Shown: positions 18,301-27,300 of the stretch, piece by piece
Numbering within the stretch: the stretch's first letter is position 1
Layout: each line of letters opens with the position of its first letter
NCBI GenBank assembly: GCA_947467145.1
Contig: CANIGJ010000002.1
Span: forward strand, 13,423 to 77,422
Source of the DNA: Rhodospirillaceae bacterium
Lineage (GTDB): Bacteria > Pseudomonadota > Alphaproteobacteria > Rhodospirillales > UBA2165
Direction of reading: 5' to 3'
Length of the DNA stretch: 64,000 nt
Made by a program: the position numbers

Positions 18301-21300
18301 AAGTCGGCGATCATCGGACGCGGGCGGTTCTCGCAAAACCTGAAACCGCCCGCCCACTCCGATTAATTTTTTGGCCGACTAAATTTAGGGCCCGGAAGAA
18401 TCCCGGCCCGTGACCTCGCCTCAATCCCTCGCTATCGTTGCTGCGTCATCGAACGTGGCGCGAACACGCGCCGCGCGCGCGAGGTGTAGGGGGCATGGCG
18501 CAACAAGCCAAACAGCAGGCCGAGATTATGGACGCCGCCAATGCGCATCAGCGCGCGGGCCGGCCCGATCTCGCCATTCCGCTTTATCGCTCCATCCTCG
18601 CGGCTGATCCGCGTAATGCCGAAGCGCACAAGATGCTGGCGATCGCGCTGTTCCAGAACGGCGATGCCGATGCGGCCGAACAGAGTGCGCGGCGCGCTGC
18701 CGCCGCCAAGCCGAACGCCGTGGATGGCGCGAATATTCTGGCCTCCATTCTCGGTCAGCGTGGTCGTTACGAAGAATCCGTGCAGGCTTTGCGGCCGTTG
18801 GAAGCGCGCCTGGCACCTTTCCCCGGCGCTTGCTTGACCTACGGCCTCGCGTTGCGCGGCTTGCGCGATTACGCAGCGGCCGCGATCTGGTTTGCCAAAG
18901 CGGCCGAGAGCGATCCCGCGCTGCCCGATGTCTATCTCAATCTCGGTTTCGTACTGGCGGAACTTGGGAACCGCGACGAGGCCATCGCTGCGCTGCGTCA
19001 TGCCGTCGAGCGCGCACCCACATCGGCGGCGGCGCGTCATATGCTGGCGAGCCTCGACAACAGCAATCCGCCAGCGCCGCCGATCGATTATGTGCGCTCG
19101 CTGTTCGACGAATATGCGCCGCGTTTTGAGCGCGAACTGACCGTCGATCTCGGCTATCGCGTGCCGGAAATTTTGCGTCAGATGATCGATGCCGCGCGAC
19201 CGAGTGTGAAATTCCTGCGCGCGCTCGATCTCGGCTGCGGCACCGGGCTGTCGGGTATCGCGGTCAAGGATCGCGTGACGGAAATCGTCGGTGTCGATGT
19301 CGCCAAGGCAATGATCGCCGAGGCGCGCGCCAAAAAAATCTACACGGCACTTTTTGGCCTCGAGATCGCGGCCTATCTCGCGTCGAACGATGCACAGCGC
19401 AAACCGTTCGATCTGGTGCTGGCGGCGGACGTTTTCATTTATGTCGGCAAGCTCGACGACATCTTCGCGACGTTGGCGCAACGCATGGCGCCGAATGGTC
19501 TGTTTGCTTTTTCCGTCGAGGGCCATGACGGCGCCGGTTTCGTTTTGTACGAGTCGGGCCGTTACGCGCATGGCGTTGCCTATATCGAGCGTCTCGCTGC
19601 AGAACATGGGTTTGCCGTTGTCGCGCAGGAAGCCATCGCGATCCGTAAAGCGAAAGACGGCCAGGTGAACGGCTTCGCGTTCGTGCTGGAACGGACCGGA
19701 TGACAGCTTGGCAAATCTGGATCGATCGCGGCGGCACCTTCACCGATCTCGTGGCGCGCGGGCCGGACGGCGCGCTGCATACAGCGAAGCTGCTGTCGGA
19801 TAATTCGGATCATTACGCCGATGCCGCGCTTGAAGGTATCCGCCGCATCGCCGGTGCGGCTGCGGTCGCGCACGTCAAAATGGGCACGACGGTCGCCACC
19901 AATGCCTTGCTCGAACGCAAGGGTGAACCGACGCTTCTGGTGGTGAACGCGGGTTATGCCGATATCCTGCGCATCGGCACGCAGAACCGCCCCGATCTGT
20001 TCAAGCTCGCCATCCAATTACCCGAACCGCTGTATACGTGCACCGTCGAGGTCGCTGGCCGCCTGGATGCGCGAGGGGTGGAGATCGCCCCGCTCGACGA
20101 CGCGGCGGCGTACGCCGCATTGACGCGCGCTTATGATGATGGGTTTCGCGCCTGCGCCATTGTGCTGATGCATTCCTATCGCGCACCGCAGCATGAACAG
20201 CGCATCGCCGAGATCGCGCGGGCCATCGGCTTCACGCAAGTGTCGGCCTCGCACGAGGTCAGCCCGCTGATGAAGTTGGTGCCGCGCGGCGATACCAGTG
20301 TCGTCGATGCGTATCTGTCGCCGATCCTCAGGCGTTATGTCGAACGCGTGGCGGGCGGTATCGGTGATGCAATACCTTTGATGTTCATGCAATCCAACGG
20401 CGGCCTGACCGAAGCCTCGTTGTTTCGCGGCAAGGACGCGATCCTGTCGGGCCCGGCGGGCGGCGTGGTGGGCGCGGTCGAAACGGCGCGCGCGGCCGGG
20501 TTCGATCGCATCATCGGTTTCGATATGGGCGGTACGTCGACCGATGTGTCGCACTATGCTGGCAGCTACGAGCGGGCGTTTGATACCCAAGTCGCCGGGG
20601 TGCGCGTCGCGGCACCAATACTCCGCATCCACACCATCGCGGCGGGCGGCGGTTCGATCCTCGCCTTCGACGGCCAGCGCTTCCGCGTCGGCCCGGCCTC
20701 GGCCGGCGCCGATCCGGGGCCCGCTTCTTATGGCAAGGACGGGCCGCTCACGGTGACCGATGCCAATGTCATGCTCGGGCGCATCCAGCCGGATTATTTC
20801 CCGCGCGTGTTCGGGCCGAATGCGGATGCGCCGCTTGATGCCGCCGTGGTTGCGGCGAAATTTGCCGATCTGGCGCGCGACATGGGGCGTGATCCGCTCG
20901 ATGTCGCCGAAGGGTTTCTTACGGTCGCCGTCGAGAACATGGCCGCCGCCATCAAGCATGTCTCGGTGCAGCGCGGCTACGATGTGTCGAAATATACGCT
21001 GGTCTGTTTCGGCGGTGCGGGCGGACAACATGCCTGCCGGATCGCCGATGCGCTCGGTATGCAAACCATCTTCATCCATCGCCTCGCCGGTGTGCTGTCG
21101 GCCTATGGCATGGGTCTGGCGCCGGTACGCGCCCATCGTGAAGCGGCGGTGGGTCGCGCGTTGAACCACGATCTGGTCGCTACGTTGAACGGCATCGCCG
21201 CCCCGCTCGAAGCCGCCGCGCGCGCCGAACTGATCGGTCAGGGCATCGCCGTCGATGCCATCGCCACCGTTCGTACTTTGCAGGTCCGTTACGCCGGCAC

Positions 21301-24300: not shown

Positions 24301-27300
24301 ACATCGACTATTTCATTTCGGGCGATGCGCTGGAAAACGCCGATGCCGCACGCGCGCAATCCTTTTACAGCGAAACCCTTGTGCGGCTTGCCGTGCCGCC
24401 GACGTACCTTTATCCGGCGCGGCACAGCCCGATCGACGCAGAGTTTGCTTTTCCCGATGGAGCGACACTTTACGTCTGTCCGCAGCAGCCGGCGAAATTT
24501 CATCCGAGTTTCGATGTCGCGCTGATCGAGATTCTGCGCCGCGATGCCAACGGCATCCTCGTGCTGATCGATATGTTCGCGCTGCTGACGCCCATTCTGC
24601 TGCGCCGCTTGCGCGCGGCGGCCCCAGATATTGCGAGCCGTATCCACGTCGTGCCGCGCCTCGATCAGGCGCGTTTTTATGAGTTGTTGAAGGAGGCGCA
24701 TGTGGTGCTCGACACCACGCATTTTTCGGGCGGCGTCAGCAGCGCGGAAGCCTTTGAATTCGGCAAGGCGGTGGTCACGTTGCCGCATCCCGATCTGATG
24801 GCGGGCCGCGTCACGGCGGCCTATTACCGTCAGATGGGCGTGGAACGCTGCATTGCTCGGGATCTCGACGATTACGTCGCCATCGCAGTGCGGCTGGGTT
24901 CGGATGCGGCCTATCGGGCGGAGACGGAAGCCGCCATTGTCGCCGCGCGGAACCGGCTGTTTCTCAATACCGATGGCGTGCGTGCGTTGGAGGCGTTTTT
25001 CGTCGACGCGGCGGCGCGCGTTTAGGTGCGCGGCTCGGCGGTGCTGCGGCGTACGTCGCCGCGGCTTTCGTCCACGGGTGGCGCTTCCATATTCTGCGCC
25101 AGCAGCTTGAAGCGCGGGATCATGCAGATGAAGAACAACGCGTAGATCGCCGTTGCGATGACGAACACGGTCTGCAGGTCGGAGAATTCGGCGAGCGTGC
25201 CCAGGAACCACGCGCCGATCGGCGGGCCGGCGCGCATGATCAGGCTCCACACGCTGACCACGCGGCCGCGCATGGTGCTGCTGATCGAACTTTGGATCAG
25301 CACCTGACTGCCGATGCCGCCCATCGCGACTGTGATGCCGAGGAACGCGATGGCGCCGACGGCAATATTGAAATTGGGTGCCAGCACAAAGGCGAACTGG
25401 GCGACGATGCCGACGGCAAACACCGTCATCACCAGCCGCGTCATGCCCTTCACCTTGGTCGTATTGGCGACCACAAGTGCTCCGACCAGCGCGCCGACGC
25501 CGACGGCGGAGGTGAGCATGGCGAGACCGCCCGGGCCTTGCATGAACACACCGTCGGCGAAACCGGCGAGCAGTTCGCGGAACGGCCGCATGACCAGGGT
25601 CGTCACCAACATCAGCGCCATATAAAGGCTGAGGCCCGGCTTCTCGAAGATATAGAGAAGGCCGTTCTTCATATCGGTGACGAAACTGGTTGCCGAACTG
25701 GCGCGGCGCTCTTCGTAACGCAGGCGGATAATGCAGAGCGCTACGAGATAGACGAGGTAGCCGAGCGTCGTGATGACGAACAGCATGCCGATGCCAAAGA
25801 CCGTGTCGGTGAAGGCCGCGATGATCAGGCCGGCGGCGGCCGGTCCCAGGATCTGCGCCAGATTGAACAAGGAGGCGTTCATGCCGATGGCGGCGGCGAG
25901 ATCTTCGCGTGGCACCAAGGAGGGCGACATGGCGAGGCGCGCCGGCGCCCAGAAGGCGTCCAGCACGCCGTGCAGCGCCATCGCGGCGACGACGAGCCAG
26001 ATGGTCATCCAATGCATCAGGGTGAAGGTGGCCAGGATCACGACCAGGATCGTCACCAGGACCTGGGCGATGCGCATCATTTTGAGGCGGTCCGAGCGGT
26101 CGATCAGCGTGCCGAAAAACGGCATGCAGACGATGACCCCGATCGCGTCAATGAAGGCGATGGCGCCGAGCCAGGCGTAGGAATGGGTCAGCTCCCAGGC
26201 GAGCCATTGCACGCCGACGCGCTGCACCCAGATGCCGATATTGGCGAAGAACCCGGAGAACGTGTAGATCACAAAATCGCGATGACGGAAGGCGCGGCCC
26301 ATTCCCTGGCTGGTGAAACGCTGCCATCTGCTGGGCTGATCTATCATGTCGCGGTGTTTGGCGTCCTCAATTCGGGTTGTAGGACCGGAATCCGGGCATA
26401 AATACCCGCCCAGACGGCGAGAACAAGCCGAAAGCGGCCGGTTCTGCCTCAATATCACCGAATTCGCGGGCTATTTCAGGGGGAATCTCTGGTCTCGCCA
26501 GTCGTTTGATTGGCGACGGTCCGCTATCTAGGATAGGCGCGCATTGCGCGGCGACGGGATCATAAGCCGTGAGGCATGGGGTGACGGCTTGAAATATTGG
26601 ATACGGGGGTTGGCGGGATTGCTTGTCGCATTCGTCGCGGCGATCCTGATCGTGCCTGCCCTGATCGACTGGAACAGCTATCGCGCGGATGTCACCGCCA
26701 AGGCCGGGCAGGTTCTCGGCCGCCCGGTCGAGATCCGTGGCGATATCAATGTGGCCCTGCTGCCCGTCCCCAAGATCACTCTCGAGCGCGCCCATCTCGG
26801 CAATGTCGAAGGCGCCTCCGAGGCCGACATGTTGGCGCTCGAGGCGCTCGAGGCGCAGCTCGCCTGGGCGCCCCTGTTGATCGGGGAGCTGCGCGTCGAA
26901 TCGGTCAAGCTCGTACGGCCCGTCCTGAATATCGAGATTTTCGAGAACGGCGAGTCGAACATGGTCTTGCGTCCGCGCGAGGTGAGCGCCACGCCAGCAC
27001 CCGCACAAGGCACGACCACTACGCCATCGGTGCCGGGCCTGCGGGTGACGCCGAAGACCGGCGGCGGATTCGATATCAGCGTGGAAAATTTTGTCGTCGA
27101 AAACGGCACGATCATTTATCGCAACGCGGTGCGCGGTCTGGTCGAACGGCTCGACGATCTCAGTGGCCGCGTCGCGTTCGCCAGCCTCAAGGGGCCGATG
27201 GATATTTCGGCGAAGGCGACGATCCACGGCCTTCCCGTGTCGATCGAAGGTTCGTCCGGCGAGATCATTCAGGGACGCACGGTGCCGTTCAATCTGGATG

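Follow-up and report, generated by a model that had tools for sequence, protein, structure and literature searches.

Two lineage-specific tetratricopeptide-repeat enzyme genes flank a putative eukaryote-type 5-oxoprolinase gene in uncultured Alphaproteobacteria

When the gene of a lactam-opening ATPase lies packed between the genes of two enzymes that carry tetratricopeptide repeats (TPRs), does the packing reflect a common chemistry or only a common history? This question is raised by a 64-kb stretch of contig CANIGJ010000002.1 from a Rhodospirillaceae bacterium, which is called the window here. At 18495-25025 on the plus strand, a listing of open reading frames (ORFs) and direct reading show three packed ORFs for a TPR/S-adenosylmethionine (SAM)-dependent methyltransferase, a fused HyuA-HyuB oxoprolinase, and a TPR/GT41 glycosyltransferase. 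The original prediction had described this trio with these domains, with an ATGA at 19700-19703 and with the oxoprolinase stop inside the start of the glycosyltransferase gene, and the ORF list, the reading, and Pfam agree with it on all of these points. It had further proposed that the lactam-opening ATPase and the two TPR enzymes work on one substrate.

Our results lead us to favor another explanation, to which we give a probability of roughly 0.7, namely, that a widespread housekeeping gene was joined by two lineage-specific TPR neighbors, that the oxoprolinase continues in its ordinary job, and that the three genes are linked by expression and not by chemistry. All three belong to known families, and what is particular to this locus is their lineage-specific arrangement.

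Distribution of the arrangement and conservation of its genes

The trio is not a three-gene module conserved across diverse genomes; the arrangement is restricted to one lineage. This clade of uncultured Alphaproteobacteria comprises 11 sequences or clusters whose oxoprolinases are at least 76% identical to that of the window, and its nearest named relatives are Rhodospirillaceae metagenome-assembled genomes (MAGs). All three genes are found at loci L081-083 (oxoprolinase 100% identical), L085 (82%), L086 (77%), and L175 (78%), as well as at L176 (79%), where the contig stops within the glycosyltransferase gene. The gene order thus does extend beyond a single strain, as the original prediction had supposed. 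At L084 (94%), the glycosyltransferase is present, and a contig-cut upstream ORF of 92 amino acids corresponds to the methyltransferase C terminus at 91% identity. L172 (78%) has the methyltransferase and the oxoprolinase, followed by two ancestral MFS genes and no glycosyltransferase. Orthologs of the window methyltransferase (at least 49% identity) were found only in the clade with the arrangement.

The sister lineages L087-L091 (oxoprolinase 67 to 69% identical; the named sources are Rhodospirillaceae MAGs) share the syntenic block of the window, with genes for Amidase_2, a DjlA-like protein, a TPR-GT41 protein that we call GT41b, DUF3750, the oxoprolinase, two copies of MFS_3, AsmA, RHH_4, and CobD, and the cold-shock gene of the block is also present in L087 and L088. 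They have neither the TPR-methyltransferase nor the downstream GT41 gene, and their oxoprolinase gene stands alone behind 150 to 290 bp of noncoding DNA. The closest outgroups in the tree, P0067 and P0022, have unrelated gene contexts. A scan of one genome per species gave, among the matches listed, 80 full-length oxoprolinase orthologs at 56 to 66% identity, from Alpha-, Beta-, and Gammaproteobacteria, Cyanobacteria, and others. At 79 of these 80 listed matches, neither a methyltransferase nor a downstream glycosyltransferase of the types seen here lies within 8 kb, and only one of the 80, L001, has window-type neighbors (a GT41b homolog, MFS, and AsmA).

The reverse test gave a similar picture. 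Among 80 metagenomic loci of distant TPR-methyltransferase relatives (28 to 42% identity), an oxoprolinase lies nearby at none and a GT41 domain at three, and we rejected on the latter count the idea that the TPR-methyltransferase and the TPR-GT41 enzyme were a preexisting pair later split by the oxoprolinase gene. Co-occurrence of the three families, which the original prediction had put forward for analysis, is thus negative outside the narrow clade, whether one looks at the sister lineages, at the listed distant orthologs, or at the methyltransferase relatives.

For the oxoprolinase itself, we compared the 11 clade sequences at 414 positions whose conservation reaches 97% or more among 108 orthologs from outside the clade. 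About 410 of the 414 (99%) are kept, and four are changed in most or all clade sequences: Pro461 and Glu485 in 11/11, Glu577 (to Asp) in 10/11, and Gly580 in 7/11, all of them in or near the Hydant_A_C region (window ~21080..21440). In the clade, P461 is replaced by R, V, A, or T and E485 by G, S, A, or V, with no single new residue at either site, and because these positions have become variable, they look like sites of relaxed constraint rather than a new interface. The root-to-tip length of the clade is 0.247, versus 0.241 for other oxoprolinases, and the gene nests within the ortholog tree without a long branch; in the neighbor-joining tree, the clade is monophyletic (bootstrap 1.0), with P0008/P0009 as a subclade of their own. 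As far as its sequence tells, the oxoprolinase shows no sign of changed function or of rate acceleration.

Sequence divergence proceeds two to three times faster in the flanking genes than in the oxoprolinase gene, yet purifying selection acts on all three. Where the oxoprolinases of clade members are 77 to 82% identical, the methyltransferases are 51 to 63% and the glycosyltransferases 55 to 59% identical, and the ratios of nonsynonymous to synonymous substitution rates (dN/dS) are 0.14 to 0.19 for the oxoprolinase, 0.07 to 0.32 for the methyltransferase, and 0.12 to 0.30 for the glycosyltransferase.

The three enzymes, their junctions, and the transcription unit

The central gene (19700..23260, +; 1186 amino acids) encodes a fused HyuA-HyuB ATP-dependent lactamase, as seen from Pfam and from its homologs. 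Hydant_A_N, Hydantoinase_A, Hydant_A_C, and Hydantoinase_B (E 7e-199) cover residues 6-1184 in A-then-B order. The database holds more than 8000 homologs, more than 100 of them at 62 to 69% identity, and many are named 5-oxoprolinase (ATP-hydrolyzing). An A-then-B fusion of about 1200 amino acids is the layout of the eukaryotic oxoprolinases (PMC8453981), and the eukaryotic type was counted in 115 of 984 prokaryotic genomes by Niehaus et al. 2017, as cited in PMC13274462; going by that cited count, the window enzyme would be of a type that is in the minority among prokaryotic 5-oxoprolinases. In B. pertussis, a eukaryotic-type 5-oxoprolinase gene lies near receptors of tripartite ATP-independent periplasmic (TRAP) transporters that bind 5-oxoproline (PMC13274462), and this published link agrees with the DctP/Q/M TRAP transporter that we find about 3 kb upstream of the Bordetella-type ortholog at L009 (62% identity, full length). 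Models of other members of the superfamily failed. The NCBIfam caprolactamase models score 354 bits (CapA) and 158 bits (CapB), both below the cutoff of 1000, and the Apc subunits of acetophenone/acetone carboxylase score 63 to 157 bits against cutoffs of 1250 to 1500; with these scores, and with a protein that is fused and not split into separate alpha and beta subunits, neither identity was retained. From the names of the homologs, the fused layout, the failed rival models, and the Bordetella-type TRAP context, we read the central enzyme as an ortholog of the eukaryote-type ATP-dependent 5-oxoprolinase.

The upstream gene (18495..19703, +; 402 amino acids) encodes a TPR class I SAM-dependent methyltransferase, with several TPR families, TPR_2 among them, at residues ~11-190 and Methyltransf_12/25/11 at 244-339. 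A TTG at 18438 shares its frame, and the 402-residue product called in near-identical contigs fits the ATG at 18495. The alignment shows an invariant LDLGCGTG (motif I), DV..Y.G, and a conserved C-terminal SGRYAH; homologs are named "predicted TPR repeat methyltransferase" by JGI, and we take the family to be COG4976. An AlphaFold2 model (pLDDT 95.8) consists of a TPR superhelix (11 helices in the TPR region) and a Rossmann domain. In a fold search with this model, TPR proteins dominate and the catalytic domain matches generic class I methyltransferases, among them 6mro and NRMT1, with scores that are alike; the NRMT1 match was not accepted as a sign of N-terminal methylation. Our literature search on the function of COG4976/TPR-methyltransferases turned up one passing mention and no member with a known substrate; the substrate here is probably a protein. 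In the P0008/P0009 subclade (L172 6928..8004; P0139), the methyltransferase has 357 to 358 amino acids, which is about 45 fewer, and the ~75 N-terminal residues of the window protein, which make up about two TPRs, are absent from it.

The downstream gene (23253..25025, +; 590 amino acids, or 594 from an ATG at 23241) encodes an OGT/SPINDLY-like glycosyltransferase with several TPR families and a Glyco_transf_41 domain (PF13844; 74.4 bits against a cutoff of 25). Its PDB matches are Thermobaculum terrenum OGT (5djs), human OGT, SPINDLY, and XcOGT. In the catalytic region, the His of its SAHLKNH aligns with SSDFGNH of human OGT, and the Gln and Lys of its QQPAK align with NQLYK; in human OGT, these residues are H498, Q839, and K842, with roles known from the OGT literature. 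The position of the phosphate-binding motif GHTT of human OGT reads GGVS in the window enzyme and GCTT in T. terrenum OGT.

At the first junction, the methyltransferase and oxoprolinase genes share the ATGA at 19700-19703 in a 4-nt stop/start overlap, the commonest type of junction in bacterial operons. The oxoprolinase start reads ATGAC also in outgroups that have no upstream gene at all, and the overlap is unremarkable because this ATGAC already held the TGA that ends an incoming upstream frame. Every clade member examined has either the ATGA overlap or a 1-nt gap here. At the second junction, the oxoprolinase stop (TGA, 23258-23260) falls within the glycosyltransferase start, and ATG 23241 and ATG 23253 are both in the glycosyltransferase frame. 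The original prediction had named both as possible starts. The former arises as a by-product of the TAT-GGN codons of the conserved C-terminal GGGYG motif of the oxoprolinase, and the latter is probably the true start because the N termini of the orthologs line up only from there (MSDFDDR in the window, MNAADER in L085, and MLEGEDR in L086); the overlap with the oxoprolinase gene is then 8 nt.

Upstream of the three genes lies a cspA-type cold-shock gene (18093..18302; CSD domain, Pfam), and direct reading shows on its 3' side a terminator-like hairpin, GCGGGCGGTT...AACCGCCCGC, followed by a T-run (18320..18375, +). The arms of this hairpin are kept in four divergent relatives (alignment A2), and on this pattern it is taken to mark the upstream boundary of the transcription unit. 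A promoter-like motif, GTGACC-N17-TATCGT (18410..18438, +), follows 57 nt 5' of the methyltransferase ATG. It forms a conserved block in alignment A2, recurs at the same position in 6/6 searchable clade loci (L081-083, L085, L086, and L172) and in 0/168 other loci, and is likely the promoter of the unit. No counterpart was seen upstream of the stand-alone oxoprolinase genes of the outgroups, whose upstream regions do not align with it, and the idea that the methyltransferase gene was inserted behind the ancestral promoter of the oxoprolinase gene is unsupported for that reason. On the other side, a convergent gene for an MFS_3-family transporter (25022..26458, −; Pfam MFS_3/MFS_1), whose stop region overlaps that of the glycosyltransferase gene by 4 nt, marks the downstream boundary. 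Since there is no intergenic space between the three genes, they are probably cotranscribed as one mRNA with coupled translation.

A stepwise history and its alternatives

A stepwise, lineage-specific addition of the two flanking genes is suggested by the oxoprolinase standing alone in the sister lineages, by the absence of its neighbors at the distant loci, by the negative reverse test, and by L172, which is without the glycosyltransferase. On this explanation, a eukaryote-type 5-oxoprolinase, converting 5-oxoproline and ATP to glutamate, would have been passed on vertically within a conserved syntenic block (Amidase_2, the DjlA-like protein, GT41b, DUF3750, cold-shock protein, oxoprolinase, MFS_3, AsmA, and CobD). 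In the ancestor of the clade, a gene of the large COG4976-type family would have arrived directly upstream, its frame ending in the TGA of the oxoprolinase ATGAC, and later, in a subclade, a gene of the likewise large SPINDLY/OGT-like TPR-GT41 family would have arrived directly downstream. The simplest history thus would run from the oxoprolinase alone to methyltransferase plus oxoprolinase and then to methyltransferase plus oxoprolinase plus glycosyltransferase. A single promoter, GTGACC-N17-TATCGT, would now serve the three genes, whose translation would be linked by the stop/start overlaps. Each of the TPR enzymes most likely modifies proteins of its own, which the TPR superhelix would offer to the catalytic domain in the manner of OGT and SPINDLY; such substrates are suggested by their layout of TPRs plus a catalytic domain, which resembles that of OGT, SPINDLY, and the Caulobacter protein FlmG.

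The same packing could instead belong to a clade-specific module, in which the TPR enzymes either modify the oxoprolinase and so regulate it or share its peptide or protein substrate in a sequence of ring opening, methylation, and glycosylation. That the stop/start overlaps are kept in all clade members, that purifying selection acts on all three genes, that both flanking enzymes carry TPR domains, which are typical binders of protein partners, and that P461 and E485 are changed in every clade oxoprolinase and E577 to Asp in 10 of the 11 would all fit such a module. We nevertheless regard it as unlikely, as there is no co-occurrence beyond the clade in either direction of search, the glycosyltransferase is dispensable within the clade (L172), the oxoprolinase keeps 99% of its near-invariant positions at an unchanged rate, the residues at 461 and 485 are not fixed on a new choice, and the unit shows neither an ORF resembling a precursor peptide nor any other candidate substrate. 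Together with the sister lineages and distant loci, these observations also speak against the original scheme of a lactam-opening ATPase and two TPR modifiers that act on one substrate. Quite unlikely, in our estimate, is the proposal that the methyltransferase and later the TPR-GT41 enzyme were recruited as dedicated partners of the oxoprolinase, to modify the enzyme or to join it in acting on a protein or peptide that carries a pyroglutamyl or lactam group; the kept overlaps and the altered residues 461 and 485 are compatible with this proposal but do not require it. A defense-system reading was dropped, since PADLOC gives the first gene a generic methyltransferase match only (mad2, 47 bits) and the other two nothing.

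The central enzyme might also be another ATP-dependent lactamase or hydantoinase, in which case its neighbors might serve a small-molecule pathway. The best match among solved structures, 7hk5 (E 2.6e-143, with only 483 bits), is a chain of 1288 amino acids labeled N-methylhydantoinase, the HyuA/HyuB superfamily includes caprolactamase, N-methylhydantoinase, and acetone/acetophenone carboxylases, and we found no biochemical assay in the literature for the bacterial ortholog group. This possibility seems very unlikely to us in view of the NCBIfam models of caprolactamase and of the carboxylase subunits, whose scores lie far under their cutoffs (354 versus 1000 bits, and lower), the eukaryotic oxoprolinase layout (PMC8453981) and the naming of many homologs, an identity of about 60% across phyla in variable contexts, as expected of a metabolite-repair enzyme, and a Bordetella-type ortholog near a TRAP transporter of the kind that binds 5-oxoproline (PMC13274462); the TPR domains of the neighbors, too, favor protein over small-molecule substrates. 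Most improbable of all is that the three genes are not one transcription unit and that the oxoprolinase and glycosyltransferase genes have internal promoters, with the overlaps being mere compaction. A scan with promoter and terminator consensus sequences found no more sites than in shuffled sequence and so neither shows nor excludes such promoters, and the outgroup oxoprolinase genes have upstream regions of their own; in the window, however, stop and start codons overlap without intergenic space, the sole conserved noncoding motif sits 5' of the methyltransferase gene, and the three genes are bounded by the hairpin behind cspA on one side and by a convergent gene on the other.

Several points weigh against the explanation that we favor, in which a housekeeping gene acquired unrelated neighbors. 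The tight junction between the methyltransferase and oxoprolinase genes has been kept although the methyltransferases have diverged by about 50%, and a partnership would give the same picture. P461 and E485, near-invariant elsewhere, are changed in every clade oxoprolinase. The order of gains and losses, drawn from 11 sequence clusters, is a matter of parsimony only, and the glycosyltransferase may instead have been lost in the L172 lineage. We know of no bacterial fused enzyme of this ortholog group that has been assayed, so that "5-oxoprolinase" is a name inferred from homology and context, and the family to which it belongs also holds caprolactamases, N-methylhydantoinases, and carboxylases.

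If the favored explanation is right, the locus is a case of operon growth, in which fast-evolving genes of large paralogous families insert beside a conserved housekeeping anchor and become translationally coupled to it, and it is a warning that tight packing in one genome is a poor guide to function. If a partnership were true, it would provide the first substrate lead for two large bacterial families, the TPR methyltransferases of COG4976 type and the GT41 enzymes that resemble SPINDLY, together with a new role for an OPLAH-type enzyme, and a dedicated partnership would mean that a bacterial metabolite-repair ATPase has been retasked into a protein-modification pathway.

Surroundings and comparison with known systems

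The unit is not the only place in the window where genes of these families are found. GT41b (14566..16176, +), an older TPR-GT41 gene about 24% identical to the downstream glycosyltransferase, lies 2.3 kb upstream of the unit, and a Methyltransf_24 gene (16173..16979, −) overlaps its end on the opposite strand. GT41b belongs to the conserved block in all relatives, and in the Rhodospirillaceae MAG locus L001 (6385..7878), it stands directly upstream of the oxoprolinase gene on the same strand; in L085, an additional Methyltransf_21 gene follows the glycosyltransferase gene. The neighborhood seems to attract TPR-glycosyltransferase and methyltransferase genes.

The MFS_3 gene ("transmembrane secretion effector") lies convergent and directly 3' of the oxoprolinase gene in L001, L087-L091, and L172, in one or two copies, and is present also in L173. 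Usually there are two tandem copies, and loci with the glycosyltransferase keep one. We considered that the glycosyltransferase gene had replaced the copy proximal to the oxoprolinase gene and dropped this idea, as the one MFS protein of the window is nearest to the proximal copy of L172 (73% versus 55%), which leaves the distal copy as the one absent from the window.

When the window is compared with L084 (94%) over 18495..30236, the synonymous divergence (dS) ranges from 0.05 in MFS, 0.13 in the glycosyltransferase, and 0.18 in the oxoprolinase up to 0.54 in AsmA and 0.69 in the final 92 methyltransferase codons, and such strong differences between adjacent genes suggest that this region is a recombination mosaic. 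Farther upstream, a long ORF at 13596..14537 (+) has no Pfam match, and the relatives have at the equivalent position a minus-strand gene for a DjlA-like protein (TerB plus DnaJ, ~250 amino acids); the real gene there is probably 13707..14483 (−). Rfam at gathering thresholds finds no RNA element in the unit and, in the whole window, RNase P RNA only (class A, RF00010, 9144..9539, −, 326 bits, full length). No tRNA genes were found in the window.

From ~34000 to 64000, the GC content is lower (0.55 to 0.59, versus 0.61 to 0.67 in the upstream 34 kb), and the gene content looks like that of a polysaccharide, O-antigen, or capsule island. This part holds two NAD-dependent epimerases, a GHMP kinase, a GFO/IDH oxidoreductase fusion, a carbamoyltransferase, a PMT_2 glycosyltransferase, a Wzy_C ligase/polymerase, a radical SAM protein, a KDO-8-P-synthase-like protein (DAHP_synth_1), several methyltransferases, an ABC exporter, and a CTP_transf_3 cytidylyltransferase; Pfam gives no match there for 34983..36890 (−), 36900..38420 (−), 46812..48326 (+), 52570..54090 (−), and 58343..60007 (−). 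The sugar-nucleotide and polysaccharide genes lie about 10 to 39 kb downstream of the unit and are not adjacent to it.

With respect to known systems, the downstream enzyme shares N-terminal TPRs and a C-terminal GT41 catalytic domain with human OGT, SPINDLY, XcOGT, and T. terrenum OGT. It differs from the GT41 protein glycosyltransferases in having fewer TPRs, a length of only 590 amino acids, and GGVS in place of the human GHTT, and its gene is one of many fast-evolving paralogs. FlmG, the Caulobacter flagellin pseudaminyl-transferase, to which the original prediction had pointed, combines in 596 amino acids an N-terminal TPR module, to which the protein substrate binds, with a C-terminal GT-B module, and it is not called a GT41 enzyme in its paper (PMC7591256). 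The analogy holds for the two-module layout and for length (596 versus 590 to 594 amino acids), compared by architecture alone. NCBIfam gives no FlmG-type match for the proteins of the unit, and no flagellin gene was seen among the scanned ORFs of the window, which leave out several ORFs, including most of those at 1-12 kb. The upstream enzyme, for its part, resembles the COG4976-type family in its TPR N terminus and class I SAM methyltransferase domain, with motif I and SGRYAH intact.

The central enzyme is like the eukaryotic OPLAH and OXP1 (EC 3.5.2.9) and their bacterial homologs in being a single chain of about 1200 amino acids, HyuA and then HyuB, with the four Pfam domains, and it shares 62% full-length identity with the Bordetella-type ortholog, with the near-invariant positions of the ortholog group kept. 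Its gene differs from those of other OPLAH-type orthologs in its setting between two overlapping TPR-enzyme genes, neither of which is a neighbor at 79 of the 80 listed loci. Compared with PxpABC, the 5-oxoprolinase that is widespread in prokaryotes, it would carry out the same reaction, the ATP-dependent opening of 5-oxoproline (PMC13274462), whereas PxpABC is made of three subunits whose sequences are unrelated to that of the window enzyme (PMC8453981, PMC13274462).

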